Assembly: GCA_007376395.1 (NCBI GenBank) | Contig: VMGE01000004.1 | Span: 70,431 to 134,430 of the forward strand | Source of the DNA: Microgenomates group bacterium Gr01-1014_5 | Lineage (GTDB): Bacteria > Patescibacteriota > Microgenomatia > UBA8517 > UBA10165 | Direction of reading: 5' to 3' | Length of the DNA: 64,000 nt | Shown here: in pieces, positions 33,216 to 53,806 of the stretch | How positions within the stretch are numbered: position 1 is the first letter of the stretch | How the letters are laid out: each line of letters starts with the position of its first letter | Program-made: the position numbers and the translations under genes | Notes under the pieces: generated by a model | The model's database searches: none | Told to the model about the DNA's origin: nothing | Seen by the model: the letters and a program-made list of their open reading frames with translations, nothing else

Positions 33216-33301
33216 ACCTAACTTCTGAATATACTACATTATATCCGGTTTAAGCAAGAGGTGTTAAAATTACTAGAGGTTGAAATTTTCAGCCATGGAA
33301 C

Positions 33302-34501: not shown

Positions 34502-34534
34502 TACTACAGGTATGTTTAGGAGTGCAACTTTTTA

Positions 34535-35506
34535 TCAAGAGGGAAAATGAGGAACTCTTAGTATTTTGGAGTTATTGCTTCTAAGAAAGTTTCCAATCCG
34601 ACTCTTATTCCCACAAATAAACTTTTTTATTGTCAATAGAGAAGGCACCGTACTTGCACCTATTCCCCCAAGTTTTTCTTTCTCAGCTATTTTTAAACTC
34701 GCATATAGAGAGGCAAATAAAGCTGCTTCTTTTAAATCTTGATACTGTAGAAAATGTATAATAAAAGCAGTTGCATAGACGTCTCCCGCACCGGACAGGT
34801 TTACAGGCTCATTAGAAGATAACTCAAAGGCCTTGATTCTTATGGGTTCTTTTGGGGTATTTTTATAAACAAGAGATCCATTTCTGCCGCACGTTAGAAC
34901 AGTTACAGAACTATGCATTATTAGCCTCTCGAGCAACAATTTTCGGGAAAAACCACTGTTATTAATAGTAATATCTTCTTCACTAAACACTGTAATTCTA
35001 GAGTAAGAAAGCGAGGATATTTTTCTCCAAACGATTTGTTTAACCTTACCGCTTTTTTGTATCTTACGAAAGTATCCCTGGGGAGTTGCTGTAAAATAAC
35101 CTAATTTTTCTAGAATAGGGAAAAGAGCCTCTTCTACTTCAGCAACAACTGATGCTATTAATATCACTGAGTTGTCTGGAAAACTTGGGAAAAAGTCTAG
35201 ATCTTCAACAGTGATTCTTTCTTGGGTATCGGTAACTACCTGCTCTCGGTTACCATCTTTACTAAAAAAATTTTTAAAGGAGGTTAAACCCTTCTTAATA
35301 TTCGATTGTCGAATGGGTAGCGGATATACAACAATCCCCATTTTTTCAAGTTGACGGACGTATGGATGTTTTTGTGGTATTTTAGTGATGATATGGGCTC
35401 GAAATCCCAGTTTCATTGCAGCAACCGCCGAGTAAACAACCGCCCCTGATACATGGCTTCTCGGCACGATATCTTCAGTCACATGTCCTATTGTATAAAA
35501 ATTCAT
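34535..35506 (-). CDS. PfkB-family (ribokinase-like) sugar kinase
   Basis: N-terminal GG-like region and C-terminal SGAGDVYATAFI catalytic GAGD motif. Confidence 0.75.
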   Translation of the reverse strand: MNFYTIGHVTEDIVPRSHVSGAVVYSAVAAMKLGFRAHIITKIPQKHPYVRQLEKMGIVVYPLPIRQSNIKKGLTSFKNFFSKDGNREQVVTDTQERITVEDLDFFPSFPDNSVILIASVVAEVEEALFPILEKLGYFTATPQGYFRKIQKSGKVKQIVWRKISSLSYSRITVFSEEDITINNSGFSRKLLLERLIMHSSVTVLTCGRNGSLVYKNTPKEPIRIKAFELSSNEPVNLSGAGDVYATAFIIHFLQYQDLKEAALFASLYASLKIAEKEKLGGIGASTVPSLLTIKKFICGNKSRIGNFLRSNNSKILRVPHFPS

Positions 35507-35653
35507 AATACAGTTTACCCTAAAGTTTTACCCATCTTACCGCTCGCTGAATACACATCTTATCACATAGGATTTTCAGAATTTACCGTTAATCAATACT
35601 ATAAGTAGATATTGGGGTACGTTGAGGTTATAATTAGCAAATTAGTCGGTTAT

Positions 35654-37315: not shown

Positions 37316-38483
37316 TAACGATACAGAAACTCTAAAGACCTACCGTGCGCAACTTGAATTATTTCTCAGAGAACGTGGCTGGGAAAGGAGAGATTGCTCA
37401 AGATGTGAAAGGCAATACTACGCCAAAGGAGTTTCGCAAAATTGTGGAGATTCAACGTGTTGTGGCAGTTTCGAATTTCTCCAAGATGTTAGAAGAGAAA
37501 GATCTCTAACACTTCCTGGGTTAGAAATAGTTGTTCGGAATCACTTCGAGAACGCAGGGTTTGAACTCCATCCTCCTAAATCAATTCTCAACGAAGGTGG
37601 TACAACGTTGTTCACGTCAGCTGGAGTCCAGTTATTAGACGACTGGGTATTAAAGGACGCCAACCCTCCCCGGAGACCTCTTTATGTATCGCAACCCAGC
37701 GTTCGTACACAGCACCTTGACAGTATAGGAGAGGGTAACTCTTTGTCTTTTGTAAATATATGCACAGAGGTTGCTAATGCAACTCCAGAAACACACTTCG
37801 TAAATTTAGACCATTGGCTAGACTGCTTGTCTAGACTTGGTCTATATGTTGGAGATATTACCTTGCACGAGAGGAGGCTAATTCAGCAATGGGGAGATGT
37901 TACACTCAAAAGCGAAATTATAGCCATTTTCTATAAAGGACTAGAGATTGGAGACGGAAACTATAATTATGGCTTTACTCCACAAGCATCCAACGCCACA
38001 TTCATTAGCGACTTTGGTTTTGGACTTGAAAGATTGGCGTGGATTTTGCGTAAAGGTTCGTATTTCGACGGAGTAGGACCATTAAGTGAATCTCTTAAAG
38101 GAAACAGTGTTCTCCAAGAATTAATTAAAACACTAACTTTACTCTCTTCTTATGGACTCGAACCCTCAAATAAAGATAGGGGTTATCGTTTCAGGCTTTT
38201 TGCGAAAAAGCTGGTAGCTCTTACTTTCCCTGAACACTGCGTAGTTTTCCCATTGGCTTCATATTACTATAATTATTGGAAAAACTTTGCTGACTTGCTG
38301 ATCCAACAGGATCTTGTAGTAGACATAATACAAAGAGAGTATGACAGAAACTACAACCAGAGGGTCAACTTATTACTCTCGGCAAAGTCTGATCCTAATT
38401 GCCCAACAGAAGAATATCTCTTAAAATTACTTATGTCCAGAGTTAGCAGAGATGGGATTGCTCAAATACTAAGGGGTAATTAA
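37290..38483 (+). CDS. Stand-alone alanyl-tRNA synthetase catalytic-core homologue with N-terminal Cys zinc ribbon
   Basis: TLFTSAGVQ (AlaRS LLFTNAGM), SQPSVRTQHLDSIGEGNSLSFVNICTE (SQRCVRAGG...FFEMLGN), SDFGFGLERLAWIL (DTGMGLERIAAVL); only 397 aa, no tRNA-binding/editing/C-Ala domains; CSRCERQ...CGDSTCCG. Confidence 0.7.
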   Translation: MTIERPTSNNDTETLKTYRAQLELFLRERGWERRDCSRCERQYYAKGVSQNCGDSTCCGSFEFLQDVRRERSLTLPGLEIVVRNHFENAGFELHPPKSILNEGGTTLFTSAGVQLLDDWVLKDANPPRRPLYVSQPSVRTQHLDSIGEGNSLSFVNICTEVANATPETHFVNLDHWLDCLSRLGLYVGDITLHERRLIQQWGDVTLKSEIIAIFYKGLEIGDGNYNYGFTPQASNATFISDFGFGLERLAWILRKGSYFDGVGPLSESLKGNSVLQELIKTLTLLSSYGLEPSNKDRGYRFRLFAKKLVALTFPEHCVVFPLASYYYNYWKNFADLLIQQDLVVDIIQREYDRNYNQRVNLLLSAKSDPNCPTEEYLLKLLMSRVSRDGIAQILRGN

Positions 38484-38489
38484 TATTAT

Positions 38490-39191
38490 ATGATCTTATT
38501 CTTATCAGGGGGTGGCAATAGTAAAGATTCTAAAGAACTCGATAAAAGATTTTTAGATCTTTTGCCCAACAAGAAATTTCTCTATATACCAGTCGCTCTC
38601 GAGGGAGAGCAAAATTATTCTTATCGAAAGTGCTACGAGTGGATTAAAGACGTTTTTTCAATACTGACTAGTAATTCACCGAATATAACAATGTTGACGG
38701 ATTTGGCCTCGGCTAACATGGACTTCTTAAAATCTTTTGACGCCATATACATAGGAGGAGGAAATACATACAAGTTAATAGGTCGTATGGCGGAAAGTAA
38801 ATTTAATAAATTATTACTTGCGTTTGTCAAAAACGGTAAACCAGTGTATGGAGGGAGTGCTGGAGCTATAATATTCGGAAAAAGTATTGCTACGGTTGAA
38901 GAAGAGAATGTAAACAATTCTAGTTCTGACCAGGGATTAAATTTACTGAAGGGTTTTTCTGTAAAATGTCACTATAGAAATACAAAAAGTGAAGTCGATT
39001 TAATTAATAACTTTATCAAGCAGAGAAATGGTGGGGTATTTGCTCTTCCAGAACAAACAGGTTTAATCATTACAAACACCTCAATTGAAGTTGTGGGAAA
39101 TAAGCCTGCTTATGTCTTCTCAAACAAACGACGCGGATCTGCAAAAAATATAGGTAAACTTATCCGAACAGGAAGTTTTGTGTATTTATAG
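38490..39191 (+). CDS. Peptidase S51 / type-1 glutamine-amidotransferase-like protein
   Basis: MILFLSGGG, AIYIGGGNTYKL, VYGGSAGAII pattern of PepE/cyanophycinase-like fold. Confidence 0.55.
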   Translation: MILFLSGGGNSKDSKELDKRFLDLLPNKKFLYIPVALEGEQNYSYRKCYEWIKDVFSILTSNSPNITMLTDLASANMDFLKSFDAIYIGGGNTYKLIGRMAESKFNKLLLAFVKNGKPVYGGSAGAIIFGKSIATVEEENVNNSSSDQGLNLLKGFSVKCHYRNTKSEVDLINNFIKQRNGGVFALPEQTGLIITNTSIEVVGNKPAYVFSNKRRGSAKNIGKLIRTGSFVYL

Positions 39192-40104
39192 TGGTGATGG
39201 CAACTACTGCTTGTTCAGAAATACCAAATAAATCTTCGATGACTCTTACTTCATCAGAATAAGCATGTTTGCTACGAACTACCCCATCTGCTTCTATTGA
39301 AGTTGTCCACGGCTCATCTGTCCCCCATACAAGATTACCCTTCATCAACTGATAATATCTTAATAACGAGCTCGCGGGTTTCAACGGATCTATCATATTT
39401 GGATACTTTACGCTAGTATTACCCTCAGAAACAGCAGCGCATAATTGCAAAAAGGGAGAGCAGTCTATGTATATATTGCCCATTCTCGAAATCTCAAAGA
39501 TTGCTTCCTGGTCAAGTGCTGCCAAGTGTGCAACACATAATCTAAGCTTTGGGAATTGTCGGCCTATCTCTAAAATATTGCCTGGGCGAGACAGTGCATC
39601 TGGACCCGAATGAACTAAAATAGGCAAATTATTACCCTGAGCAAACTCAGCGAATCCGCTTGTAATAAGTTTCTCTGCGCCACAACCACAGGCTAGAGTA
39701 TGAAATTTTAAGCCGTAAATTTTACCTGAATCTAAAAGTTCTCTTAAAAAATCGATCTGCTTGTGTACTTCTGTGTTCGGATCAATACACGCGAAAGGAA
39801 ATATATCTCCCTTAAATTGTTCACAATCACTGACAAGCACCCTGTTTTCTGTTTGATAAGGGAAGTCTTGAAAACCTGATGGCTCCCTTCTCCCTTCCAA
39901 AACCAAGGTTCTTGTGTTGTAATAAGTCGAACCTGGAAATGGAAAAGTGACTACTTTGTCAACACCTGCAAGTCTAGCCTTGAACATTAAGTCGGAAACA
40001 GCTTGTGTGTGGGGTAAGTTTCCTACAAAATAGTTATATGCATCAGTTCCCCCAGAATGAGTATGGCAATCTATGGCATTTCTAATCCCAAGTTCTTTTA
40101 ACAT
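39160..40104 (-). CDS. Amidohydrolase-2 family metal-dependent hydrolase (TIM barrel)
   Basis: AIDCHTHSG metal-binding HxH, conserved His/Asp downstream; 314 aa. Confidence 0.6.
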   Translation of the reverse strand: MLKELGIRNAIDCHTHSGGTDAYNYFVGNLPHTQAVSDLMFKARLAGVDKVVTFPFPGSTYYNTRTLVLEGRREPSGFQDFPYQTENRVLVSDCEQFKGDIFPFACIDPNTEVHKQIDFLRELLDSGKIYGLKFHTLACGCGAEKLITSGFAEFAQGNNLPILVHSGPDALSRPGNILEIGRQFPKLRLCVAHLAALDQEAIFEISRMGNIYIDCSPFLQLCAAVSEGNTSVKYPNMIDPLKPASSLLRYYQLMKGNLVWGTDEPWTTSIEADGVVRSKHAYSDEVRVIEDLFGISEQAVVAITTINTQNFLFG

Positions 40105-41348
40105 CAGTGGTTTATAAGTTTTCCGTCTATAAATTCTGAAGTAATCTTTTGAACCTTGTCTAGATAACTATTAACAACTTTATAGACAACCGCCTTGTCT
40201 GCTAGTGTGACTACTCGAATTAACCAAGGTTTGTCGAGAGGTCCACCGTTTTGCGAAACTATTTCAACAATATTTGATTTACCTGTTTTTTTATATAACT
40301 TAGATGATATCTTCTTGGTCACGACTGAATATATAAAACCAGAATAATACCTGGGATTTTTACCGTTAACACCTTCCATACTCATCGGTCTGTTTGATGT
40401 GATAAGACCGTTTGCTCTATTGCCTCTCCCAACAACACCGATATCACCAGACAAAGATGCACCTGATACCGTAAGATATACATTCAACTTTTCGTAATCA
40501 TCCTTTGTATTAATAGATATATCGATAGAATGTTTAGGTAAGTGTGTTTTAAATTTTCCCTCTATTATCCTACCAATAGTTTCTAAATTATTTTTGTAAT
40601 TCGTAAGGGAATGTACGTATTTTGCAATTTGCGGTATACACAAAGTAATACCAATTTTTTTCTGATTTCTAACAGCCATAATCTTAATATCAGATCCCAA
40701 CCACTTAAATTTCACTTTTGTTTTCTTATCGTTCAAGAACTTCTCCACTCTAAGTACTGCCGTCTCTAATTCTGAGTATGGAGAATATGCTATACAGTAT
40801 GAGGTGTCGTTCGCTACCAACTTCTCATAACCTCTGACGTGTACTTTATCCTTAGGTGAGAACATACTAGCTATAGCTCCTTTGCTATTTTTAATAGTTC
40901 CTGGACCGGGATAATCTGTTAGTTTGTTTTCTATCTTTATGTCGTGTTCGAGATCGACCAGAGGAAAGCGCTCTTTAAAATAATTTTTTATCGACGAACT
41001 TAATATCTCGTTCACAGGGATATCGTTTCCCTTATAAGAATAGGTAATCCTTCCTGCAATAATTACTCTAATTGGTTCTAGAAATTCTCCCCCACCGAAA
41101 TCGATCCTAGTCTTTCCACCGATTATCATAAGCTTGTCTATCTGATGGTGAAGAACTAACCCATCACATCTCTTTGTTGTATAAATGGAATATCTACGAC
41201 TAAGATCAGCAGCTAAACTATCTGCAATACTGTCAGGATGTCCCAGACCCTTCCTTTCGATTGTTTCAAAATCCCCATAAAAAGGGTTTGCATCTACTAT
41301 TGTAAGATGACTCGTCTTAATCCCATTTGGCCCAAAAGATATCGACAT
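40104..41348 (-). CDS. S-adenosylmethionine synthetase, archaeal type
   Basis: ERKGLGHPDSIADS, HHQIDKLMIIGG, NDTSYCIAYSP, INTKDDYEKLNVYLTVSGASLSGDIGVVGRGNRANGLITSNRPMSMEGVNGKNP align along whole length with archaeal MAT. Confidence 0.85.
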   Translation of the reverse strand: MSISFGPNGIKTSHLTIVDANPFYGDFETIERKGLGHPDSIADSLAADLSRRYSIYTTKRCDGLVLHHQIDKLMIIGGKTRIDFGGGEFLEPIRVIIAGRITYSYKGNDIPVNEILSSSIKNYFKERFPLVDLEHDIKIENKLTDYPGPGTIKNSKGAIASMFSPKDKVHVRGYEKLVANDTSYCIAYSPYSELETAVLRVEKFLNDKKTKVKFKWLGSDIKIMAVRNQKKIGITLCIPQIAKYVHSLTNYKNNLETIGRIIEGKFKTHLPKHSIDISINTKDDYEKLNVYLTVSGASLSGDIGVVGRGNRANGLITSNRPMSMEGVNGKNPRYYSGFIYSVVTKKISSKLYKKTGKSNIVEIVSQNGGPLDKPWLIRVVTLADKAVVYKVVNSYLDKVQKITSEFIDGKLINH

Positions 41349-41507
41349 GTTTAATATTTATAAAAACAGTATTGCTACGCATAGCGCGCCCTATCACTTC
41401 TAAATTCGTTTTAGATTGCTTCAAGGTGGCGTGTTATTATAACAAAAACACACAACCTAATACTCTTTTTGAGCAATTTCTCTCTCTTGCACATTCTTGG
41501 TTAAAAT

Positions 41508-41915
41508 TTGATTTTCCTTAAAACTTCCTATATACTCTGCCAAATGTTACTCGAAAAACTAGGTAGCTACCTAACTGCTGCTGAAACCAAAGAGCAGATA
41601 ATAGAACAATGTAAAAAGACAATTGAAAAACTTGGATTGTTTGAAACTTTGCTAGATCTTACCTCAAATAATACTCAGGTTACCTTAGACTTGGATACGT
41701 CTATACCCAATAATAAGATTTATATTCAGCTGAAAGTAACACAAAAATTTCCAGGGACGGCAACCGAGATAACGATAGGGGTTAAACCAGACGAAGCAAC
41801 GGTTCATGGCCAGAAGACAGACGAAGAACGTTATAAGAAATTTGACGTAGTAAATACACCCATAGATCAACTTCAACGGGAGTTTAGAGAAACAATCAAA
41901 GGCCTCGTCTCTTAA
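41508..41915 (+). CDS. Hypothetical protein
   Basis: 135 aa ORF, AT-rich. Confidence 0.3.
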   Translation: MIFLKTSYILCQMLLEKLGSYLTAAETKEQIIEQCKKTIEKLGLFETLLDLTSNNTQVTLDLDTSIPNNKIYIQLKVTQKFPGTATEITIGVKPDEATVHGQKTDEERYKKFDVVNTPIDQLQREFRETIKGLVS

Positions 41916-41990
41916 AACTAAGCTCCTATGGTGCGATTTCTCTCCAAACGAAGCCGGTGCGACGCGGTGAAAAATTGAAAATATTAAATA

Positions 41991-42356
41991 TCACTCGAGC
42001 AAAACTTTGTTATCCAGAATGCTCGGGTATCTAACGCCTAAAATTGTCAATTCTTCTTTAACTTCGATTATTTTTTCTGGTGTGTCTTCTGGAACAGCTA
42101 GGTAATCCCCTTTTTCCAGTTCAAACGTTTCCTTGCCGACTCTAAATACAGCCTCGCCTTTTAAGACTACCATATATTCTCTTCCTTTTGGATGTTTGTG
42201 CAATTTGTCTGATGGCGTACCAGGTACAAAGGTCTTGTAATATATCTCTATGTGATCATCTTTGAAAGAGCTTCCGTCAGGGAAAAATTGCCCCACCAGC
42301 CAGCCTCTCATTGTTTTTTGCTGGACAGAAACTTTCCCTATTTGAATATTACTCAT
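41991..42356 (-). CDS. Cupin-domain protein
   Basis: HKHPKGREYMVVLKGEAVFRVGKETFELEKGDYLAVP two-motif cupin signature. Confidence 0.6.
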   Translation of the reverse strand: MSNIQIGKVSVQQKTMRGWLVGQFFPDGSSFKDDHIEIYYKTFVPGTPSDKLHKHPKGREYMVVLKGEAVFRVGKETFELEKGDYLAVPEDTPEKIIEVKEELTILGVRYPSILDNKVLLE

Positions 42357-42921
42357 TTTTATTCCTTTGTTCGCTCTCGATATTGTTAACGAGTTCTGCC
42401 AGTTCTTCCTCGGTTAACAAACGTATATCTAGTTCTTTGGCGACTTCGCGAATCTTATTTTCTGCTTCGCTCTTCTTGTTTTCATCATCAACGACCAACT
42501 CAAGCTCCAAGTGATATTGCCAATGCTCGCTAAATTTTAGTGCAAGTTCGACTCCATTATATAAGTAATTATTTCTTTTTTGAAAAGAATGCATTATGTT
42601 ATCGGTAACTTTCAGTTTAGTAAATATTTCTACTGCTCTGCCTACTTCACTTTGCTGTACAGGGAATTCTATTTCTTCAAAAGCGCTTCCCTTGCCAATT
42701 CTATTTAATTTTAGAGTTATTTTCGCTGTACCTTGAGAAGTGTTGCTGGTAACTTTCAAAAGCTTGTCGGGAAAAATGAAGAAGTGCACGTCTTTATCGT
42801 CTTCACCCAAGTTTTCTGCGTTTTTATCCAGAAATTGTTTAAGACGGTCGTATTCTGCCTTGTCAAAAACAGACCTAAATTCTATTTCAAAATTTCTCGC
42901 AGACTTGTTCGCTTTCTTCAT
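42349..42921 (-). CDS. CYTH-domain protein (triphosphate tunnel metalloenzyme)
   Basis: N-terminal EIEFRSVF (EXEXK-type start), alternating acidic beta strands; start at M16 of ORF. Confidence 0.55.
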   Translation of the reverse strand: MKKANKSARNFEIEFRSVFDKAEYDRLKQFLDKNAENLGEDDKDVHFFIFPDKLLKVTSNTSQGTAKITLKLNRIGKGSAFEEIEFPVQQSEVGRAVEIFTKLKVTDNIMHSFQKRNNYLYNGVELALKFSEHWQYHLELELVVDDENKKSEAENKIREVAKELDIRLLTEEELAELVNNIESEQRNKNE

Positions 42922-42992
42922 CGCGTGAAGAAAGTATAACAGAGCTGGACATAAGACAAAAAACATATTATTACAATGCTATAATCTTATTT

Positions 42993-43451
42993 ATGGAAGA
43001 TAGAAAAATACATATTCGTTTAAGACTTATTATTATAAAAAATGGCAAGCTTTTAGCTTCATATACCAAAAAACGCGATTTTTACTTTTATATCGGAGGC
43101 CATATGGAAAATGGAGAAACAGTGCTTCAAGGGTGCAAGAGAGAAATTATTGAGGAATGTGGGGAAGGAACTGAATTTACACTAAACAAAATTCTTTATA
43201 TTAGAGATTTCTTTGACCCGGATAACGGCGAACAAAATCTTGAGCTTTTTATTTTGGGTGATATTAATAAAGATAAAGGGCTTGAACACAAATTAGATTA
43301 TCAACACCCTGACGGTTCGATGTGGTTAACCTGGCTCGATGTCGAAAATTTACCTAATAATATATTCCCCAAACAATTAAGCAGTAAACTTTTGGAAGAT
43401 TACAAGCAAGGATTCCCTAACTCCGGGGAATATATTGGCGAAATTGAATAA
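42993..43451 (+). CDS. NUDIX hydrolase
   Basis: Nudix box GGHMENGETVLQGCKREIIEECG. Confidence 0.7.
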   Translation: MEDRKIHIRLRLIIIKNGKLLASYTKKRDFYFYIGGHMENGETVLQGCKREIIEECGEGTEFTLNKILYIRDFFDPDNGEQNLELFILGDINKDKGLEHKLDYQHPDGSMWLTWLDVENLPNNIFPKQLSSKLLEDYKQGFPNSGEYIGEIE

Positions 43452-43530: not shown

Positions 43531-44613
43531 CTAAAAAGCCAGGAGCGCCCCGAAGATTATTAGTAAGAATCCGGCTCCGATAGCCAGGTAAGTTGGAAGG
43601 CTAAACCCGGCAACCGGTGTCTCGCCTGAGGGTGTGGTTGTTCCCCCTTGAACTCCGGAAACAGTAAATGTGGTGGTGTAAGTCCCGTTAGAATCGGTAA
43701 TGGTAAGCGTGTGCGTTCCTGCTGACAAGGTCGAAGGGATGGCGTAACTCCATTTACCTGTTGCGTCGGCCTTGACTGTAGCCGTTATCGGTTCAGATTG
43801 AATTGTAATGGTTACGTTGGAATTTGGTTTGGCAGTTCCTGTGATTGTATCCCCTGCCTTGACCGTCTTGTTGGCTGGCAGTGTGACCGTAGGTTTTGCG
43901 GCTGGCGAGGCTGAGGCTGAAGGCGCTGCTGATGGTGAAGGCGAGGCAATTGATCCGCCAACTGGTGCAGTAGATGGGCTAGGAGAGGCAGAACTTCCCG
44001 CTACGGGAGACGCCGAGGGTGAGGGTGATAACGGTAATGCTGGCGAGGCTGATGCTACCTGTGCCGGTGATGGAGAAACAGCTCCACCAGCCGCCAGAAT
44101 AGATATGGTTGCCGGATTTTTAGCAATAATGACGTTTGTCGCTTCGCTGGTTCCCGCGGCCTTAGTATTCGGACCAAAAGTAATTGCCGCATTCCCTGCG
44201 GCCTTTGCTTCAAATTTAAGTGTGGCGATGGTCCCTTTTCCCTGGGGAGGGTTGGCTGGTTGTGCTCCTAAAGAAATAGTGGCAGACCCGGCTGTATTGT
44301 TGATTTGGGCTTTAGCTAATTCGACCGGTAAAAGTGTCGAAGGAGAAAAACTGGCGAGTGTTAGCTTTTCTTTATCGAAATTAATCTCCAGCTCAGTTCC
44401 GGAGAGAACGTTGGTCGAAGTGTCTACCTCAACCGTAACATCAAAGCTTTCCCCGACCAAAATAGTCTTAGCTGGTTTTTTAATACTAATGGTTGTTGCC
44501 GGAGCCGCTTTTTCGCGGAGATCTTGCTGTTGGCGCATTAAATAAAGCCCGGCTCCCAAGCCAGCCAAGATTAAAAATAAAACAATAATAGCGACAATTT
44601 TCTTTGTACTCAT
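43531..44613 (-). CDS. Cohesin-domain surface protein with Ser/Pro/Ala-rich linker, Ig-like domain and C-terminal TM anchor
   Basis: N-terminal TM, cohesin-like ILVGESFDVTVEVDT...GKGTIATLKFEAKAAG, SPSPS linker, C-terminal hydrophobic anchor. Confidence 0.6.
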   Translation of the reverse strand: MSTKKIVAIIVLFLILAGLGAGLYLMRQQQDLREKAAPATTISIKKPAKTILVGESFDVTVEVDTSTNVLSGTELEINFDKEKLTLASFSPSTLLPVELAKAQINNTAGSATISLGAQPANPPQGKGTIATLKFEAKAAGNAAITFGPNTKAAGTSEATNVIIAKNPATISILAAGGAVSPSPAQVASASPALPLSPSPSASPVAGSSASPSPSTAPVGGSIASPSPSAAPSASASPAAKPTVTLPANKTVKAGDTITGTAKPNSNVTITIQSEPITATVKADATGKWSYAIPSTLSAGTHTLTITDSNGTYTTTFTVSGVQGGTTTPSGETPVAGFSLPTYLAIGAGFLLIIFGALLAF

Positions 44614-44615
44614 AT

Positions 44616-45164
44616 CTAATCAACAATTATATAGCCTGCGGTGGTTTCTTTTAAAACATTAAAGGATTTTTGCACAGCTGCTGCCTGGCTCCCTTCGAGA
44701 CTTAGATTACTCCTGCCTTTTTGCAGACCTTTAATTTTTATTTTTGCAACAGTCCCCTTTCCCTGTTTTGCCCTAATACCTCCAAGAACAAAAGTAACGT
44801 TACCTTTCTTTTGGTTAATCGTTTGCTCTAAAACGTTTGCTTTTTCAAAAAACAACCCAGGAGTAATATCTGTAACTTCGATAAATTTTGGGTTGTAGGA
44901 AAGTACGGCTTCTACTGCGCTTACTGAATCTTCATTCGTGTCGATGTTAATCGTCACGAAAGTTTCAACACCTTTTTTAACCGTAATATTTGCCGGGTTA
45001 AGGGTCAATATTGTTGTTTTTTCCTCACTTAACGCTTGAACATTCAATTTGTTTACGGATAATTTATCCGTACCGGATACAAGATATGAAAAAGTACCCA
45101 CACCAATTAGTGCCAGGCATAAAAAAGCGAGACTCCAGTTTTTAAGGACAGAATTTGTTTCCAT
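44616..45164 (-). CDS. Cohesin-domain protein
   Basis: VKKGVETFVTINIDTNEDSVSAVEAVLSYNPKFIEV...GKGTVAKIKIKG. Confidence 0.55.
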   Translation of the reverse strand: METNSVLKNWSLAFLCLALIGVGTFSYLVSGTDKLSVNKLNVQALSEEKTTILTLNPANITVKKGVETFVTINIDTNEDSVSAVEAVLSYNPKFIEVTDITPGLFFEKANVLEQTINQKKGNVTFVLGGIRAKQGKGTVAKIKIKGLQKGRSNLSLEGSQAAAVQKSFNVLKETTAGYIIVD

Positions 45165-46276
45165 TAATCCCCTACTTTGCCGAAGTTTTGCACGACAAGA
45201 TTGTAATCAAAAATGTCGACGTCGTTGTCGAAATCTAAATCAGCAGGACTTCCCCCGGAAGGCATTCTTGACCCAAAATCCTGGACGATTATATTGTAAT
45301 CAAAAATGTCGACAACATTATTGTCAACAATATCTCCAGCTATTAATCCAAGATACCCGTCTTTCGGAACAGTTACGGTTTTGCCCGTACTGAAACCTAC
45401 CGTGCCAATTTTCTTTCTCAGCTGGGATAGCGCATTTACAAAAATGTGGTAGGTACCGATAGGTGCCGTTAGGCTGGCGGTATATGTTCCGTCGCCGTTG
45501 GTTACGGCACCTGAGGTAGCGCTTGAATCCATTGGTTGACCAGAATCGGCAAGTGCAGATTCGAATCTAACATCAACGGGAATTTTCCGGCCGCGTTCGG
45601 TAGCTGATCCTGAGGTCACCCCTTCAAATTTAAGGTTAAGAATAAGATTGTCGACGGAAGGTGGGTTTGATTTTGAAACGTATACACTCGCCGGGTAAAA
45701 ATTACTCGCGACATTTACTTGTTTGTAAATGGCCGCGACTTGCGAACCGTCTGCCAGGGAAAGAGTGGCGTTGCCTTCTTGATTTGAAGCCACGAATTTA
45801 ATGGTGGCCACTTTGCCATAGCCTGAAACTGGTGTTTCTGTTTTACTACCGACTGCGAAAGAAATTGTTGTGGGCGGTGGCGGGTATTGAAGTGTCATTA
45901 CGTCAGGAATTGTGGGTTCTTCTAGGATTACCGGCAGAAAGCCGCCCACAGTCACCCCTGCTTCTTCTGCGTGCAATAGTGTGCCGTCATAAGTCAAAAC
46001 AATCTCTGCGGCAGTGACATTATTAGAACCAGTGTCCAACATGACGTCGACATAAAATGTTTGGTTTGGTGCGACGTTTATAATGTCAGGCTGAAGTGAC
46101 AGTGTTGCCGGGAATTCATAGCCGCCAGTACCGGAAACAGGAGAACCGGCTCGCGAGAATGGATTCGTTGGAGAAAGCGCGAGATAAACAATTACCGGGG
46201 TAACCAAAAGAAAGACAAAAAGGCTTGTTAGGGCAAATCGTTGAGTGAAGTTTAAACTACGCCATTTTAGGAACAC
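45164..46276 (-). CDS. Cohesin-domain protein with C-terminal tandem dockerin
   Basis: Cohesin core FYVDVMLDTGSNNVTAAEIVLTYD...GKVATIKFVAS; C-terminal DIVDNNVVDIFDYNIIVQDFG ... DLDFDNDVDIFDYNLVVQNFG dockerin repeats. Confidence 0.65.
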   Translation of the reverse strand: MFLKWRSLNFTQRFALTSLFVFLLVTPVIVYLALSPTNPFSRAGSPVSGTGGYEFPATLSLQPDIINVAPNQTFYVDVMLDTGSNNVTAAEIVLTYDGTLLHAEEAGVTVGGFLPVILEEPTIPDVMTLQYPPPPTTISFAVGSKTETPVSGYGKVATIKFVASNQEGNATLSLADGSQVAAIYKQVNVASNFYPASVYVSKSNPPSVDNLILNLKFEGVTSGSATERGRKIPVDVRFESALADSGQPMDSSATSGAVTNGDGTYTASLTAPIGTYHIFVNALSQLRKKIGTVGFSTGKTVTVPKDGYLGLIAGDIVDNNVVDIFDYNIIVQDFGSRMPSGGSPADLDFDNDVDIFDYNLVVQNFGKVGD

Positions 46277-46312
46277 ACCCTACTGTAATATACTATTAAT
46301 AGGAGTGTCAAC

Positions 46313-47539
46313 TTGAGATTTATTACGCGGTTAACTATTCTTAAAATTACCTTTTTTTCAGGGATTTTTTTGCTTCCTTTTATAGTTTGGCCTGCCTCAC
46401 CTACTCCTTTTGAAGTTCCCAGGGTGTGGGTATTTTCCCGCTGGGTTGAATTATTAGTTTTTCTGTTGGTTTTTAATCTTGGAAAAATTCAAAACAAACC
46501 AAATGTTTGGCTTTTATTTCTTACTCTTGCATTTTTCTTAATCGAGGCTGGCGCTTCTTGGTTTGGAGTTGATTGGACAAAGAGTTTAATCGGCAACTAT
46601 TACCGCGCCGATGGCCTTATCACTCTACTGCATTCTGTGATTCTTGTATTTTTCCTCGCTTTATTTTGGACCAAGAGTTATTCACGGACACTGGCTTATG
46701 TTTTTCTTTTTAGCTCTGCTCTGGTTTCTTTTTGGGCGCTTGATGAATTTATTAGCCTGCATTTTTTGAGAAACCTGAGTATTCCTAATTTTTCCGGAGC
46801 AGTTGGCGCTTCGTTTGGCCAGCCTAATTTTTTGTCCGGGTATCTTTTAGTCGGACTCCCCTTCTCGTTTTATGCCTACACCTTAAATAGCGGAGGTTTT
46901 CGTGCACTTGTTAGAATCGGCATTATATTACAAGTCTTGGCTGTCTTTTTAACTATGTCATGGGGTGGCATCCTTGGATTAATTCTGCTGTTGCTTTTTT
47001 ACTTTCTTTTGTCAGGTAAAAAACTAGCAGTCAAAATTTCTCTTGGGTTAGTATTGTCACTGACCCTGGCCGGCGCATTATTTTATTATGCCCAAAGCCG
47101 TCCTAAATTTGTAGCTGGTTTTCAAGAAATCGCTCTTCATCCCCAAAGCAGGGAGCGCATTATTAAAAACACGTTATATGCGTTTAATCTAAAGCCGTTT
47201 GCCGGATGGGGGCGGTCAAATTTTGATTATGCTTTCACGGCCAATCCCAACGACACAAGGTATGGCAGTGATGTTTATGTGGACCGCGCACATTCGGTGC
47301 TGGCTGAGACTGCTATTTCCTCGGGAGTAATAGGCCTTACTGCTTATCTTTCTTTGGCTATTTTTGCGCTTGTATTGATTTTAGTCCGGTTAAGGAAAGG
47401 TAAGGACACTGGTTGGAATAAAGCACTACTAATATCACTACTGCTCTACCTTTTCCACTCACAGACAAACGTTATTTCAATTAATGAAGAATTTTTCTTC
47501 TGGCTCATTGCAGGGATCGTGGCAAGTAATGAGTCGTAA
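46313..47539 (+). CDS. O-antigen ligase (Wzy_C) family membrane protein
   Basis: ~10 TM helices, periplasmic loop with HSVLAETAISSGVIGL Wzy_C motif. Confidence 0.6.
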   Translation: MRFITRLTILKITFFSGIFLLPFIVWPASPTPFEVPRVWVFSRWVELLVFLLVFNLGKIQNKPNVWLLFLTLAFFLIEAGASWFGVDWTKSLIGNYYRADGLITLLHSVILVFFLALFWTKSYSRTLAYVFLFSSALVSFWALDEFISLHFLRNLSIPNFSGAVGASFGQPNFLSGYLLVGLPFSFYAYTLNSGGFRALVRIGIILQVLAVFLTMSWGGILGLILLLLFYFLLSGKKLAVKISLGLVLSLTLAGALFYYAQSRPKFVAGFQEIALHPQSRERIIKNTLYAFNLKPFAGWGRSNFDYAFTANPNDTRYGSDVYVDRAHSVLAETAISSGVIGLTAYLSLAIFALVLILVRLRKGKDTGWNKALLISLLLYLFHSQTNVISINEEFFFWLIAGIVASNES

Positions 47540-47597
47540 ACCCTCTTTTTTAGCTTTCCAAACCGGGTTTGGAAAGCTAAAGTGGAATTCTGAATGG

Positions 47598-48248
47598 TTA
47601 CGTTTTTTTGAAGAATTTACTTTTGTAAATGACGTATGCCGTAATAACAACGACAGCAAAAATAACTAATCCCCAATAAGCATCTTTTGTATAGAGGTTC
47701 ATATAGAATTCTTCACCGGCATAATAAAGTATTGTGTCGGGAAGAAGGGAAATTAAAGTAGCTAAAATAAAGCGAGGGTAACTAATTTTGGAAAGACCCG
47801 CAAGGTAGCTGATAAAATCCATAACCGGGCCGGTTGTAAACCTAAGCACCAAAAAACCAAGAAACTCTGTTCTTGCAGAAAGCTTTTCTTCCCAATGGTG
47901 CAACTCCTGCAAAGGTACAAAACGTTTTACAAAAGGTTCTCTGAACTTTCGAGCTAAAGCAAAGGCGAGACTGGTACCTATAAGCATTCCAAGAGAGGAG
48001 AAAATAAACGACCAAAACCAGCCAAAGGCAGGAAGAAGCGCTAGCGAAACAACTCCGCCCGGCAGAGGCGGGATAACGATAGCCAGTATTCTCCAGAAAA
48101 TTACCAAAAAAGGCGCGAGAAAGGTGTGTTCTTTAGCAAAAGCAATGATCGCGTCAAGGTTTGAAGGAACAAGGAATACAAAGAGAGTCAAAGAAAACCC
48201 AGTCAGTAAAAGGGTTAACAAAGCAAGCCCTTTGGGTTGTTTATGCAC
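47598..48248 (-). CDS. DedA/TVP38 (VTT-domain) membrane protein
   Basis: FLAPFLVIFWRILAIVIPPLPGGVVSLALLPAFGWFWSF VTT signature. Confidence 0.75.
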   Translation of the reverse strand: MHKQPKGLALLTLLLTGFSLTLFVFLVPSNLDAIIAFAKEHTFLAPFLVIFWRILAIVIPPLPGGVVSLALLPAFGWFWSFIFSSLGMLIGTSLAFALARKFREPFVKRFVPLQELHHWEEKLSARTEFLGFLVLRFTTGPVMDFISYLAGLSKISYPRFILATLISLLPDTILYYAGEEFYMNLYTKDAYWGLVIFAVVVITAYVIYKSKFFKKT

Positions 48249-48274: not shown

Positions 48275-48916
48275 CTAGGGTAGGTTGAGGAAAAGATCTC
48301 CGAGCGCCAATTTTACGTTAACATTATTTTCTATATCAAGCCGTGTTGTTTCGATTTTTTCTGCCAATTCAGCGTGCGCCCGCGAGGGTTGTTTTAATAA
48401 AAACAGACGTGCTCCGGCAATTAATTCAGTGCAAAAAACCAGCGCTTCCTGCCGGTCGCCAATCTTGTTTAAATAATCCAAACGTTGGGCTGGAGTTAGC
48501 TTGATAATAGTTTTTAACTTTATTCCTGCCGTTTCTTGAAATTCCGGTATTGCGTTTCCAAGATTAATTTCTTGACAGCGTGAACGAATTGTGTCTAAAA
48601 CTTGTTCGCGGTTAGGGGTAGTAAGAACAAACAAGGTTTGCCCTGAAGGCTCTTCCAGCGATTTAAGAAAGGCATTCGCGGCTTCAGGAGTCAATAACTG
48701 CGCTTCTTCGAGATAAACCGCTCTACCGGCTTCGGGATCTTGCGGGGAAAAAGAAAGTTTATGTTTGAGATTCCTGATTTGTTCAATGGTATGCTTACTG
48801 TCGGTTATCAATTCGTGAATCTCTTTGATGTTTTGTTCGCGGACGAGAGACTGAAACTTTTGTTTTCTATCTGTGATGTTTTTACCAGTAATTAAATACG
48901 CGTGCATTGTTTGCAT
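48275..48916 (-). CDS. holB: DNA polymerase III delta-prime-like clamp-loader subunit
   Basis: HAYLITG, AANAFLKSLEEPSGQTLFVLTT, sensor TIRSRCQ. Confidence 0.65.
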   Translation of the reverse strand: MQTMHAYLITGKNITDRKQKFQSLVREQNIKEIHELITDSKHTIEQIRNLKHKLSFSPQDPEAGRAVYLEEAQLLTPEAANAFLKSLEEPSGQTLFVLTTPNREQVLDTIRSRCQEINLGNAIPEFQETAGIKLKTIIKLTPAQRLDYLNKIGDRQEALVFCTELIAGARLFLLKQPSRAHAELAEKIETTRLDIENNVNVKLALGDLFLNLP

Positions 48917-48939
48917 TTTACCACTTATTTCGTGGTAAA
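48917..48939. promoter_or_regulatory. Inverted repeat TTTACCAC-N7-GTGGTAAA in 30-bp holB/pilB divergent spacer
   Basis: Read directly, abuts holB start codon and lies 8 nt from pilB ATG. Confidence 0.4.
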
Positions 48940-48946
48940 ATCAGGT

Positions 48947-50710
48947 ATGCCTGCTATTGCCAGCCCCGCTCAGAACGGGGTCTCTGCATCTACAAACGGG
49001 GTTGCCCAACCGGTTGATTCTGCTTCCACCCTGGCTGACGTTCTTGTTTCTCAAGGGCTTTTAAAAAAAGAACAGGCAGAGGCAATTAAACTTCAAGAAT
49101 TACAGGAAGGAAAAACCCAGGAAGAGATTATTCAAGCTTTGGGAACCGTAAACGAGGAGCAACTGGCTCGTGCCAAAGCGTCATTTTATAACATCCCTTT
49201 CTTGGATTTAAACCAAGCCCCTATTTCTCCGGAAGCTTTAGCAGTTTTGCCCCAATCTGTTGCCGCGAGGTTTTCCGTACTTCCAATTTCTGTAAACCGC
49301 GAAAAGAACACGCTCGACCTGGCTATGGCCAACCCTCTTGACTTATCAGCGAATGAATTCGTCGAACAAAAAACAAACCTGCGTGTTAACCCTTTAGCGG
49401 TTGTCCCCTCACTGCTCGCCAAAATACTTACCGAACGTTATTCCATAGGCTTGGCAGAAGAAGTCACAAGCGCCTTGAAAGAGACCGATATCGGTGAAAA
49501 AACAATTGATCTTTCAAAATTATCTGAAATTATTTCAGAGGCTCCAATTGCCAGGATTGTGAAAGAGCTTTTAGCTTTTGCCGTTAAAGCCCGTGCTTCT
49601 GATATTCATATCGAGCCCGAAGAAAAACAAACCAGGGTCCGCTACCGTATTGACGGAATTTTGCAGGAAAAGTTTACAATGCCGCGCCAGTTTCATGATG
49701 CCTTAATCTCAAGAATTAAAATCTTGGGTGGAATGAAAATTGACGAAAAGCGGATTCCCCAAGACGGCAGGTTTAGTTTTAAGTCAGGCTTAGAAGAGGT
49801 GGATTTACGTGTCTCGTCACTGCCGATTGTTTATGGAGAAAAGATCGTTATGCGTTTATTAAAGAAAACAGGAGGCGTTCCCGATTTACCGGATTTGGGT
49901 TTAAGAGGACGAGCTTTAAAAAATTTGCAGGATGCAATTTTGCGGCCCCACGGAATTATTCTTGTTACCGGTCCAACAGGGAGCGGAAAAACAACTACGC
50001 TTTATTCGGTTTTATCAAAGATTAATACTCCCAAAGTCAATATTTTAACTCTTGAAGACCCGGTTGAATATAAAATGGCCGGTGTTAATCAAGTGCAAAT
50101 TAATGCAGATGCCGGTTTGACTTTTGCCACGGGTTTGCGCTCGTTTCTGCGCCAAGACCCCAACATTATCATGGTCGGAGAAATTCGCGATCAGGAAACG
50201 GCACAGCTGGCAATCCAGGCTTCTTTAACCGGACATTTGGTTTTTGCAACTTTGCACACTAATTCAGCGGCCGGCGCACTCCCCCGCTTGGTTGATATGG
50301 GAGCAGAACCGTTTTTAATCGCTTCTACTATTACTTGTATTCTTGCCCAAAGGGTTTGCAGAAAAATACACGAGCCCTGCCGGGAAGATTACACGCCCGA
50401 GGCGCCAGTGGTTGAAGATATGAAGAAGACGCTGGGTAATCTATGGAGCGCTAAGGATCCTGTGAAACTCTACAAAGGTAAAGGCGACCAGGAAGACGGC
50501 AATACAGGTTATATGGGCAGAGTTGGTATCTACGAGGTTATGCCCATTACCGAGAAAATAGGACGTTTGGCCATTGCACGGGAATCGGCAGAAAGTATCC
50601 AAAAACAAGCAGAAGAAGAAGGAATGATTACCATGAAGCAGGACGGATATCTCAAAGCTCTTGACGGAATTACCACTATAGAAGAGGTTTTGCGCGTAGC
50701 ACAAGAGTAA
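48947..50710 (+). CDS. pilB: Type IV pilus assembly ATPase PilB (GspE family) with N-terminal T2SSE_N domain
   Basis: Walker A GPTGSGKTT, Asp box, Walker B IIMVGEIRD, His box, tetracysteine CRKIHEPC; start at M16 of ORF. Confidence 0.9.
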   Translation: MPAIASPAQNGVSASTNGVAQPVDSASTLADVLVSQGLLKKEQAEAIKLQELQEGKTQEEIIQALGTVNEEQLARAKASFYNIPFLDLNQAPISPEALAVLPQSVAARFSVLPISVNREKNTLDLAMANPLDLSANEFVEQKTNLRVNPLAVVPSLLAKILTERYSIGLAEEVTSALKETDIGEKTIDLSKLSEIISEAPIARIVKELLAFAVKARASDIHIEPEEKQTRVRYRIDGILQEKFTMPRQFHDALISRIKILGGMKIDEKRIPQDGRFSFKSGLEEVDLRVSSLPIVYGEKIVMRLLKKTGGVPDLPDLGLRGRALKNLQDAILRPHGIILVTGPTGSGKTTTLYSVLSKINTPKVNILTLEDPVEYKMAGVNQVQINADAGLTFATGLRSFLRQDPNIIMVGEIRDQETAQLAIQASLTGHLVFATLHTNSAAGALPRLVDMGAEPFLIASTITCILAQRVCRKIHEPCREDYTPEAPVVEDMKKTLGNLWSAKDPVKLYKGKGDQEDGNTGYMGRVGIYEVMPITEKIGRLAIARESAESIQKQAEEEGMITMKQDGYLKALDGITTIEEVLRVAQE

Positions 50711-53130: not shown

Positions 53131-53242
53131 TGAATCAGGGTCTCAGCAAGTGTCAGTGTTATCAGCACATTCTGTGAGTCAGAAATTTCTGACACTCTGA
53201 TTAACTGATATTCTGAAGTGCTGACTACCGACACCCTGATTA
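53131..53242. repeat. ~110-bp imperfect palindrome with periodic TCAG (left arm) / CTGA (right arm), core TCAGAAATTTCTGA; candidate bidirectional terminator or structured RNA
   Basis: Between convergent pilC and pilin genes; arms share AATCAGGGT...GTCAGAA. Confidence 0.5.
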
Positions 53243-53806
53243 TGGGCAGGTAATAGTTGAGGCAGAGAATACTTCAAAATTAGTATCGTTGTTTCCGCCG
53301 TCGTTAATCATCTTTATCTTCTCCTTGTTTGAAGCGGATTCCATATAAGTACACAATTTATATCCGGCTGTTGAGTATCTGAAATAATAGTATGCGTTAG
53401 TTCCAGGAACTGCTGTCCCTGCCGAATCTGTGACAGAAGTTGCTCTGTTGATGGGATCAACAGGAATCACATTTGCGTAAGGACAGAGATTTACTCCAAG
53501 CCAGTTTGTAGAACATGTTTTTAAGACTGTAGGACCACTTTCCTTATTTGCGTTTAGCCCTGTAAGTGTACCAGGATTATCTTGGTAGTATTGCTCAATA
53601 ATGGCTTGTAAAGTGGCCATGTCTTTTAGCCTTGCAGTGTCGCGGGCTTTCTTTTGCGCCTCGGCAGGGTTGATGGCCACAAGAGCAACTGTGGCAAGAA
53701 TTCCCAAGATACCAATAACTACGAGTACCTCGATAAGTGTGAAACCGAGTTTTAACTGAAGCTTTCTTTTATTAAGAGCAGATATAAACATTTGTAAGTT
53801 ATTCAA
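53240..53806 (-). CDS. Type IV pilin (probable major pilin) with long leader
   Basis: Class III signal ...KLG|FTLIEVLVVIGILGILA, mature-domain ARDTARLKDMATLQAI pilin pattern; largest and first pilin adjacent to pilC. Confidence 0.7.
   Translation of the reverse strand: MNNLQMFISALNKRKLQLKLGFTLIEVLVVIGILGILATVALVAINPAEAQKKARDTARLKDMATLQAIIEQYYQDNPGTLTGLNANKESGPTVLKTCSTNWLGVNLCPYANVIPVDPINRATSVTDSAGTAVPGTNAYYYFRYSTAGYKLCTYMESASNKEKIKMINDGGNNDTNFEVFSASTITCP

Follow-up and report, generated by a model that had tools for sequence, protein, structure and literature searches.

Two kinds of described system come closest to the locus reported here, and both are known already: dedicated O-oligosaccharyltransferases encoded beside their pilin substrates, and non-cellulosomal cohesin–dockerin modules. 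Genes for dedicated pilin transferases such as TfpO, TfpM and PglS adjoin that of the pilin substrate, which is bitopic and held in the membrane by its N-terminal helix when modified, whilst PglL prefers disordered Ala/Pro/Ser-rich regions, and in the PglL/PglS class the ligase domain is found together with PglL_A and Wzy_C_2 domains (PMC12645811). Bacteria of the candidate phyla radiation (CPR, or Patescibacteria) spend their lives attached to other cells, and how they build and decorate their surfaces is poorly understood; a dockerin-domain envelope protein is essential in a cultivated Saccharibacterium (PMC10633639). Here we describe a locus within a 64-kb stretch of DNA (hereafter the window) from Microgenomates, an ultra-small CPR/Patescibacteria lineage with Candidatus Blackburnbacteria as its nearest relatives by Wzy_C protein (88% identity), in which three cohesin genes lie head-to-head with a gene for a Wzy_C protein. 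That Wzy_C protein is identical to one from Microgenomates group bacterium Gr01-1014_5.

As in TfpO/PilO–PilA, TfpM–pilin and PglS–ComP, a polytopic Wzy_C/WaaL-like enzyme is here encoded adjacent to a candidate substrate and, like TfpO and TfpM, the Wzy_C protein of the window is without PglL_A and Wzy_C_2. Unlike the substrates of TfpO, TfpM and PglS, its neighbour is not a pilin (no class III signal and no N_methyl motif) and the two genes are oriented head-to-head, and the candidate acceptor is a membrane-proximal P-x-T-P-P rather than the C-terminal Ser/Thr of TfpO and TfpM substrates. Neither a gene position beside a pilin nor a C-terminal Ser/Thr acceptor, the features by which TfpO and TfpM are recognized, was found for the window's Wzy_C. 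PglL of Neisseria, Burkholderia and Acinetobacter belongs to the same superfamily, and its preferred Ala/Pro/Ser-rich regions resemble a Ser/Ala/Pro linker in the 360-aa cohesin protein of the locus, but PglL is usually unlinked to its substrates, whereas this Wzy_C clade is tightly linked to one gene.

A signature-marked gene opposite Wzy_C

The main features of the locus are listed below with strand and basis; the coordinates of the four open reading frames (ORFs) agree exactly with those of an earlier, preliminary description of this DNA.

43531–44613 (minus): 360-aa anchoring cohesin protein (ORF, Pfam)
43534–43608 (minus): its C-terminal GFSLPTY motif and hydrophobic helix, residues 336–360 (conserved in loci L003, L005 and L080)
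43891–44094 (minus): its Ser/Ala/Pro low-complexity linker, residues 174–241 (20 Ser, 18 Ala and 15 Pro among 68 residues)
44616–45164 (minus): 182-aa small cohesin protein, N-terminally anchored (ORF, Pfam), with a start that overlaps the upstream gene's stop
45164–46276 (minus): 370-aa adaptor protein with cohesin and dockerin (ORF, Pfam, AlphaFold2 (AF2) model, Foldseek)
45167–45340 (minus): its dockerin, residues 313–370, with two 23-aa Ca-loop/helix segments at 45272–45340 and 45179–45247
46139–46276 (minus): its N-terminal signature, residues 1–46, comprising FLKWRSLNFTQR, a transmembrane (TM) helix with a central Pro, and FSRA
46277–46312: divergent intergenic spacer, 36 nt between start codons (sequence)
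46313–47539 (plus): Wzy_C, a 408-aa polytopic membrane glycan transferase of WaaL fold (Pfam, AF2 model, profile)
47099–47296 (plus): its large external loop, residues 263–328, with R280, R282, D324 and H327 (alignment of homologues)

The three minus-strand cohesin genes form one operon, since they overlap (at 45164) or abut (44613/44616), and the Wzy_C gene stands head-to-head with this operon across a gap of 36 nt. The head-to-head gene is the partner conserved across this Wzy_C clade and is marked by an N-terminal signature with the consensus W-x2-L-x3-Q-K-x2-L, a hydrophobic helix with a central L-P, about 14 residues, and S-R-A, all at fixed spacing; in 54 unique proteins the signature is followed by x2-P-[IVA]-T-P-P-[IVT]-T-P-P. 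A scan of species representatives of the Genome Taxonomy Database (GTDB) yielded 66 loci, from which 42 usable in-family species were counted. The signature protein is head-to-head with Wzy_C in 23 of the 42 (start-to-start gap −29 to 123 nt) and lies nearby in a further four, whilst none was found by hidden Markov model (HMM) in 15; the divergent slot itself holds an N-anchored protein in 35 of the 42 species. Among 44 metagenome loci, which overlap partly in origin with the species-representative loci, the signature was adjacent in 22, near in seven and absent in 15. In distant homologues, too, the divergent upstream gene codes for a secreted protein whose N-terminus resembles that of the 370-aa protein.

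Searched against all six-frame ORFs from the window and loci (n = 2631), an HMM of the N-terminal ~50 residues gave strong matches (45–65 bits) only to genes beside Wzy_C. Within the window the 370-aa protein scored 60.9 bits and the 360-aa protein matched weakly (18.6 bits), with no others detected. A model trained on 13 loci, excluding the window's lineage, detected the window protein at 36.7 bits (E 3.9e-10), and in two-fold cross-validation held-out partners scored E 1e-12 to about 1e-2 (all but one below 3e-4), whilst ORFs unrelated to the module never did better than about 1e-2. Across ~1.3 Mb of flanking DNA, the signature is essentially confined to the pair. A 24-sequence signature alignment gave no matches in a 5.8-billion-protein index, the profile being too short for a database of that size. 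The signature is without a model in Pfam or NCBIfam, NCBIfam also has none for the cohesin–dockerin protein, the small cohesin or the Wzy_C protein, and a non-pilin, signature-tagged partner class in CPR appears to be undescribed in the curated libraries and literature searched.

Beyond their N-terminal ~60 residues the partners are not conserved, with a mean column identity of 11% over full length. Most of their passengers (n = 32) have no Pfam domain, the remainder including Dockerin_1 (n = 9), Laminin_G_3 (n = 5) and Cohesin (n = 5), and passenger folds include ConA-like lectin and carbohydrate-binding module (CBM)-like folds (CBM_4_9-like). In one syntenic group, ordered pilC, pilB, MS-channel-like gene, slot, Wzy_C, PerM and miaA, the slot holds wholly different passengers or is empty (L018). 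In the stretch of 40 residues that follows the anchor, Pro, Thr and Ser are over-represented (median fraction 0.40 vs 0.225 for the 96 other N-anchored ORFs, p 2e-12), as is Pro alone (0.225 vs 0.05, p 2e-14). A reverse test began from cohesin–dockerin homologues found independently of Wzy_C: P0072 proved to face a Wzy_C gene head-to-head across 14 nt, with two cohesin genes after it (L080), whilst P0073, of the same architecture, has an ordinary signal without the signature and is not beside Wzy_C. We consider it quite probable that the pairing of Wzy_C with the signature protein is functional.

The signature resembles in concept the specialized Gram-positive signal peptides YSIRK-G/S and KxYKxGKxW (the latter of serine-rich glycoproteins) and Haft-type pairs of sorting signal and enzyme such as PEP-CTERM/exosortase with its O-antigen-ligase-like protein: a short motif within or close to the signal peptide marks some surface proteins with unrelated passengers and has a dedicated membrane partner. 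Unlike these, the locus has a different motif and its partner is a Wzy_C protein, encoded directly adjacent. A recurrent head-to-head pair of candidate enzyme and candidate substrate could provide a first handle on protein O-glycosylation in CPR, where a short N-terminal tag would predict which surface proteins the enzyme handles.

The Wzy_C enzyme and the cohesin–dockerin trio

The Wzy_C homologue that the preliminary description had placed beside the cohesins was recovered with a WaaL fold and intact active-site residues. Pfam Wzy_C (PF04932) matches it at 53.2 bits (gathering cutoffs: Wzy_C 31.7, Cohesin 24.1 and Dockerin_1 22.9 bits), and its AF2 model (pLDDT 88.7, pTM 0.88) best matches, among solved structures, the WaaL O-antigen ligase of Cupriavidus metallidurans (7TPG/7TPJ; 7TPG_B, TM 0.66, E 4.8e-8), with RodA/FtsW next. 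The sole sequence-profile match in the PDB is also WaaL (7TPG, E 2e-8), to which the family's 'R..I' and 'AH' motifs align and the external-loop Arg and His correspond, but identity is only 16% and the 64-kb window holds no lipopolysaccharide (LPS) genes. CPR are generally regarded as being without LPS, and a lipid A–core acceptor is not expected.

Across 31 Wzy_C homologues, R98, D324, H327, G338 and G341 are invariant and R280, R282, E332, E392 and E393 near-invariant (R280/R282 and E392/E393 at least 90%). The external loop leads into an H-S-x9-G-x2-G motif at residues 327–341; we take the superfamily motif to be H-[NSQ]-x9-G-x2-[GTY], accompanied by external-loop Arg(s) and a catalytic His. 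In PglS the proposed Arg/His/Glu set is R159, R271, R278, H324 and E379 (PMC12800693). Because the conserved residues mirror this set and the predicted fold is that of WaaL, the Wzy_C protein is most likely an active enzyme that uses an undecaprenyl-diphosphate (Und-PP)-linked glycan. In one Blackburnbacteria lineage, Wzy_C is fused to a C-terminal Peptidase_S9/alpha-beta hydrolase domain to give a protein of 828 aa (L024, 3449–5935, a genome record; L122, 4887–7373, a metagenome contig; the two may sample the same Rifle population), an arrangement that may be a sign of de-esterification of the glycan or of coupled processing at the Pro-rich linker.

Three consecutive cohesin proteins on the same strand, as previously proposed, were borne out: Pfam Cohesin (PF00963) matches the 360-aa (38.3 bits) and 182-aa (32.4 bits) proteins above the cutoff and the 370-aa protein at 23.5 bits, 0.6 below it, and the three are paralogous (pairwise BLASTP E 1e-8 and 4e-9). 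Within the family of the 370-aa protein, Cohesin is matched by nine of 11 members (E up to 0.1) and Dockerin_1 by five of 11 (E up to 2e-5), with several carrying a precomputed PF00963 annotation. The adaptor consists of the signature signal/anchor, a cohesin (57–200), a second, Ig-like beta-sandwich (211–311) and the tandem dockerin (313–370), and its AF2 model (pLDDT 68.9) shows an N-terminal helix, both sandwiches and two dockerin helices. Residues 57–200 are modelled as a cohesin beta-sandwich, in keeping with the nine-stranded jelly-roll of the family, at pLDDT 80–90, and the top Foldseek matches are type I cohesins (6KGC_A, TMt 0.77; 1G1K_A, 0.76).

The HMM searches suggested earlier as a check thus passed for Wzy_C and two cohesins, with the third Cohesin and Dockerin_1 below the cutoff. 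The adaptor had been credited with a classic tandem dockerin, of which 'tandem dockerin' stands and 'classic' does not, since Dockerin_1 (PF00404) reaches 12.2 bits (E 0.22) in the 370-aa protein against a cutoff of 22.9. We accept the dockerin as real but divergent because related proteins score above the cutoff (L024, 30.8 bits; L060, 35.6 and 30.6 bits), a profile of the C-terminal 62 residues of the 370-aa family has dockerins as its top five PDB matches (5K39_B, E 7.7e-4; 2B59_B, CipA; 2Y3N_B; 3KCP_A; 5G5D_B), the C-terminal 58 residues are the best-conserved part of the family (>25 invariant columns), and the domain is a tandem repeat. This repeat is mirrored in the DNA, as had been noted, by a direct repeat at 45180–45246 and 45273–45339 (67 nt, 70% identity, 93-nt offset) that codes for dockerin residues 313–335 and 344–366 (2 x 23 aa).

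Both segments have the dockerin arrangement, a 12-residue Ca2+ loop (D/N expected at positions 1, 3, 5, 9 and 12) that leads into a helix: in segment 2, Asp occupies loop positions 1, 3, 5, 7, 9 and 12, and segment 1, which resembles the CipA type II dockerin GDIVKDNSINLLD, has D1, N5, D9 and D12 with Val at position 3, like the aligned CipA dockerin. The two helices, predicted at 327–337 and 355–365 (AF2, low pLDDT), are nearly identical (DIFDYN[IL][IV]VQ[DN]FG), and analogy to type I dockerins suggests a symmetric dual binding mode.

The 360-aa protein comprises an N-terminal anchor ending RQQQDLREKAAP, a cohesin (42–166), the Ser/Ala/Pro linker, an Ig domain (246–318; Pfam Big_6 31.1 bits, Big_13 27.6 bits) and a C-terminal TM anchor, confirming the Ser/Pro linker (174–241) and C-terminal anchor (336–360) first proposed from the sequence. 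The linker differs in length among orthologues, encloses DNA repeat family D1 and is a candidate O-glycosylation region. At its C-terminal end the protein reads GFSLPTYLAIGAGFLLIIFGALLAF, which is neither LPXTG nor a basic tail; the motif P-[VA]-[AS]-G-[FM]-S-x-P-T-[FY] and a hydrophobic helix, sometimes with a charged tail, end the anchoring cohesins of the window, L003, L005 and L080 (10188–10982, PVAGMSTPTF), whilst the L111 counterpart (352–1059) has a canonical sortase signal (LPKTG, TM helix and KG). The C-terminal motif of the anchoring cohesin may be a membrane anchor or an unrecognized sorting signal. A post-helix motif, Q-x2-[RK]-[SE]-[KR]-A-A, is common to many secreted proteins of these genomes (window 44503–44613, P0071, P0073, L060, L080 and L111; for example RQQQDLREKAAP, QDLRSKAAP and IREKAAP) and appears to be a general element of CPR signal peptides or their cleavage, separate from the signature linked to Wzy_C.

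A small cohesin–dockerin surface scaffold, as already suggested for the three proteins, is a reasonable reading given the paralogous trio, the dockerin, the anchor and recurrence in other lineages, with the dockerin presumably binding a cohesin among them. They share the cohesin sandwich (TMt up to 0.77) with cellulosome scaffoldins (R. flavefaciens ScaE/ScaB, C. thermocellum SdbA/CipA) and with non-cellulosomal pairs, and, like cellulosomal adaptor and anchoring scaffoldins, one protein joins cohesin to dockerin and another joins cohesin to a cell anchor. Unlike in cellulosomes, each protein has a single cohesin, no glycoside hydrolase or CBM3 is encoded in the window, the anchor is a TM helix rather than S-layer homology (SLH) domains or a canonical LPXTG, and putatively dockerin-bearing neighbours in related loci include peptidases (M64-like in L047; in L111, an S8 subtilase whose tail looks dockerin-like). 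Linkers of cellulosome scaffoldins are O-glycosylated. The locus would thus represent a compact cohesin–dockerin scaffold in a non-cellulolytic, ultra-small bacterium.

The block of cohesin-anchor, small cohesin and cohesin–dockerin genes opposite Wzy_C is intact in relatives at 88% (L003/L004), 58% (L005) and 40% (L024) Wzy_C identity, and the trio with Wzy_C is also present in L080; comparable cohesin/dockerin clusters beside Wzy_C occur in L060 and in L111, the latter with six cohesin ORFs. The flanks of this block change among relatives. Insertions have arisen between Wzy_C and dedA at L003/L004 (9317–9958) and L005 (9208–11109), one being a Y1 (IS200-like) transposase and the other two unknown genes, whilst the cohesin side of Wzy_C is uninterrupted in these relatives. 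Proteins encoded near cohesin genes include an S8 subtilase with BNR repeats (L060, 8584–11670), an M64/M10-like peptidase (L047, 7011–8846), a further S8 subtilase (L111, 3050–4810) and an unannotated protein (L081, 345–2111). The L047 peptidase matches Dockerin_1 at 19.6 bits, below the cutoff, and the dockerin-like C-termini of the L060, L111 and L081 proteins are weak or visible only by eye; these neighbours suggest that CPR cohesin–dockerin scaffolds may display proteases rather than glycoside hydrolases.

Possible roles of the Wzy_C protein

We propose that the three cohesin proteins would assemble through Ca2+-dependent dockerin–cohesin binding into a minimal non-cellulolytic surface scaffold, and that Wzy_C would act as a dedicated O-oligosaccharyltransferase-like enzyme for its head-to-head neighbour. 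The enzyme would take an Und-PP-linked glycan and move it onto Ser/Thr of the neighbour's membrane-proximal Pro/Thr/Ser-rich stretch whilst the neighbour stays tethered by its signature helix, and might also act on the Ser/Ala/Pro linker of the anchoring cohesin. Modification of the neighbour is more likely than modification of pili, as the family is recurrently paired with signature-bearing surface proteins. We hold this full account, scaffold and tethered substrate together, to be plausible yet tentative. More speculatively, the signature may belong to an undescribed Microgenomates targeting and glycosylation system, in which a ~50-residue N-terminal tag (W-x2-L-x3-Q-K, LP helix, S-R-A and P-[IVA]-T-P-P) would single out adhesins, lectins, cohesins and dockerin proteins that are otherwise unrelated; a dedicated WaaL-like enzyme, encoded head-to-head with them, would recognize the membrane-embedded helix and glycosylate (or attach in some other way) the linker close to the membrane. 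If so, the tagged-substrate mechanism would be one not known for the Wzy_C superfamily outside pilins, and a portable N-terminal tag with a P-x-T-P-P acceptor would be of glycoengineering interest alongside PglL, PglS and TfpM; if not, the locus is an ordinary case of non-cellulosomal cohesin–dockerin modules beside an envelope glycan enzyme.

Several observations weigh against the full account. Precomputed Pfam annotation of the 64-kb window, in three overlapping stretches, includes no donor-glycan gene (glycosyltransferase, initiating phosphoglycosyltransferase or flippase), and Pfam searches of the 408-aa protein at E up to 1 returned Wzy_C alone, without PglL_A or Wzy_C_2. Neither sequence nor fold can discriminate between an O-oligosaccharyltransferase and a ligase or polymerase whose acceptor is not a protein. 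The signature is unmatched in 15 of the 42 relatives, and in L018 Wzy_C stands opposite an empty slot. After S-R-A the window's own adaptor reads GSPVSGTGG instead of P-x-T-P-P, and S-R-A obeys the −3/−1 rule of signal peptidase I, with Pro rare at +1 (0.06), so the N-terminal anchor may be cleaved. The dockerin region of the AF2 model has low confidence (pLDDT ~45). The literature searched on CPR/Patescibacteria yielded no glycoprotein evidence, and literature combining O-antigen ligase or oligosaccharyltransferase with CPR/Patescibacteria yielded nothing relevant.

The main competitor to transfer onto the neighbour, which we nonetheless think somewhat unlikely, is that Wzy_C polymerizes an Und-PP-linked envelope or S-layer-associated glycan, or ligates it to lipid or wall, with the head-to-head protein as an accessory that binds or arranges the glycan, not a substrate. 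The WaaL-like fold with the SEDS polymerases RodA/FtsW as next-best matches, the frequent carbohydrate-binding folds of the passengers (Laminin_G_3/ConA-like, CBM_4_9-like), the adjacent DedA/UptA-like gene in this lineage and occasional GT2/GT4 or epimerase neighbours (L009, L011) would all suit such a role. The glycan-locus setting of a Wzy O-antigen or capsule polymerase (wzx, wzz and glycosyltransferases) is nevertheless not seen around the window's Wzy_C: no wzx, wzz or glycosyltransferase genes occur in the window, L003–L008 or L010, GT2/GT4 neighbours being found at L009 only, and initiating transferases are likewise missing near the gene in the window and most relatives. The preliminary description had held that homologues beside O-antigen or capsule genes would speak against its own view; such a context was looked for and was not found in the ten neighbourhoods checked. 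Moreover, the partner is conserved in its N-terminal membrane segment and P-x-T-P-P, not in its passenger, which fits a recognition tag better than an accessory, and need be no larger than the dockerin-only protein of L044 (115 aa). Less probable again is that the signature is a specialized signal peptide and Wzy_C a receptor or a processing or attachment factor, for instance for tethering or release at S-R-A. The fixed spacing of W-x2-L-x3-Q-K, LP and S-R-A, the agreement of S-R-A with the −3/−1 rule beside the rarity of Pro at +1, and the Peptidase_S9 fusion of L024 and L122 are in keeping with sorting, but the clade retains the WaaL/PglS residues for Und-PP-glycan chemistry, which points to glycan transfer, and we know of no Wzy_C member that acts as a protease or sortase. 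That a housekeeping envelope enzyme merely sits beside a hot-spot of variable surface-protein genes, with no functional link, would explain why passengers are swapped between otherwise syntenic genomes, why the slot is empty in L018 and why the signature is missing in 15 of 42 loci; it is very improbable given that the pair moves together between contexts (gyrB/MFS, NUDIX, miaA/PerM, recA and ribosomal protein genes), that spacers are very short and that the signature is found essentially nowhere else in the flanking DNA.

A pilin substrate for Wzy_C, after the manner of TfpO/PilO, TfpM and PglS, was the proposal of the preliminary description, which located the genes immediately upstream of a type IV pilus (T4P) locus. 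The position holds only loosely, as dedA, holB and a hairpin separate Wzy_C from pilB.

47549–47581: hairpin with perfect 16-bp arms and a 1-nt centre, between the convergent Wzy_C and dedA genes
47598–48248 (minus): dedA, DedA/VTT-family membrane protein (Pfam VTT_dom, 66 bits)
48275–48916 (minus): holB, between dedA and pilB
48902–50710 (divergent from holB): pilB, start of the T4P locus

The T4P locus, which starts 1.4 kb downstream of Wzy_C, is complete: beyond holB lie the divergent pilB–pilT–pilC, then pilD and about seven pilin-like genes. Its linkage to Wzy_C is kept in relatives at 58–88% identity, a second lineage (L018, L019, L028 and L044) has pilC–pilB one to two genes from the pair on its other side, and the known pilin transferases belong to the same superfamily. 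Proximity is nonetheless weak evidence, having arisen in two lineages and on a different side of the pair in each. Of the 42 species, only four, all from one syntenic group, have pilB/pilC within 6 kb, the other 38 having none in that range, and distant homologues have neither T4P nor O-antigen or capsule genes nearby. The window's nearest pilin gene (53240–53806) is 5.7 kb and five genes from Wzy_C rather than adjacent, the opposite-strand dedA and holB genes and the strong hairpin set Wzy_C transcriptionally apart from the pil genes, and insertions in relatives fall between Wzy_C and the pil genes, never between it and the cohesins. Ser/Thr-rich pilin C-termini had been suggested as glycosylation sites to look for, yet in the nine proteins checked, which were pilin-like or encoded nearby, neither a terminal Ser/Thr nor a low-complexity Ser/Thr/Pro/Ala region was seen. 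With C-termini, composition and T4P proximity across relatives all against it, a pilin substrate is highly unlikely and we rejected it as the leading explanation.

Flanking DNA and minor observations

On the minus strand, the spacer at 46277–46312 contains a promoter-like TTGACA-18-TACAGT that ends 6 nt before the GTG start of the cohesin operon; this spacing of the −10-like hexamer suggests an mRNA that is leaderless or has a very short leader. On the other side, a Shine–Dalgarno sequence (AGGAG) lies 7 nt ahead of the TTG start of Wzy_C. An imperfect inverted repeat, ACACCCTA...TAGGAGTGT, flanks both ends of the spacer and is a candidate operator.

The hairpin at 47549–47581 folds at −23.1 kcal/mol (z −4.15), with none of 200 shuffled sequences folding equally well. 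A canonical intrinsic terminator was considered and ruled out because no U-run follows the stem on either strand; the hairpin likely marks a transcript boundary. The DedA/VTT protein encoded beyond it, convergent to Wzy_C and linked to it only in close relatives, weakly resembles (17.8 bits) the undecaprenyl-phosphate transporter UptA, and on this similarity could recycle the lipid carrier freed by the transferase.

An antisense shadow ORF of 245 aa (43808–44545, plus strand) runs across the GC-rich Ser/Ala/Pro-linker region of the 360-aa cohesin gene. In a public assembly (L001, 7517–8233) the gene caller picked this antisense ORF over the cohesin gene, which is why that record is without the third cohesin protein. 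The GTDB titles of many contigs (L017, L021, L023, L027–L031 and others) read 'uncultured Gammaproteobacteria/Pseudomonadales', 'Clostridia' or 'Vitreimonas', and look like placeholders or errors because gene content and closest relatives are Microgenomates-like.

Upstream of the cohesin operon, synteny with L003/L005 is broken at about 27541–43451, where the window has ~16 kb of other genes, among them a carbamoyltransferase, an archaeal-type AdoMet synthase (PF01941), CYTH and NUDIX. In L003/L005 the cohesin operon instead directly follows gyrB–MFS–methyltransferase–PaaX-like genes and a 183/209-aa membrane protein, which is 66% identical to the product of window positions 26958–27509.

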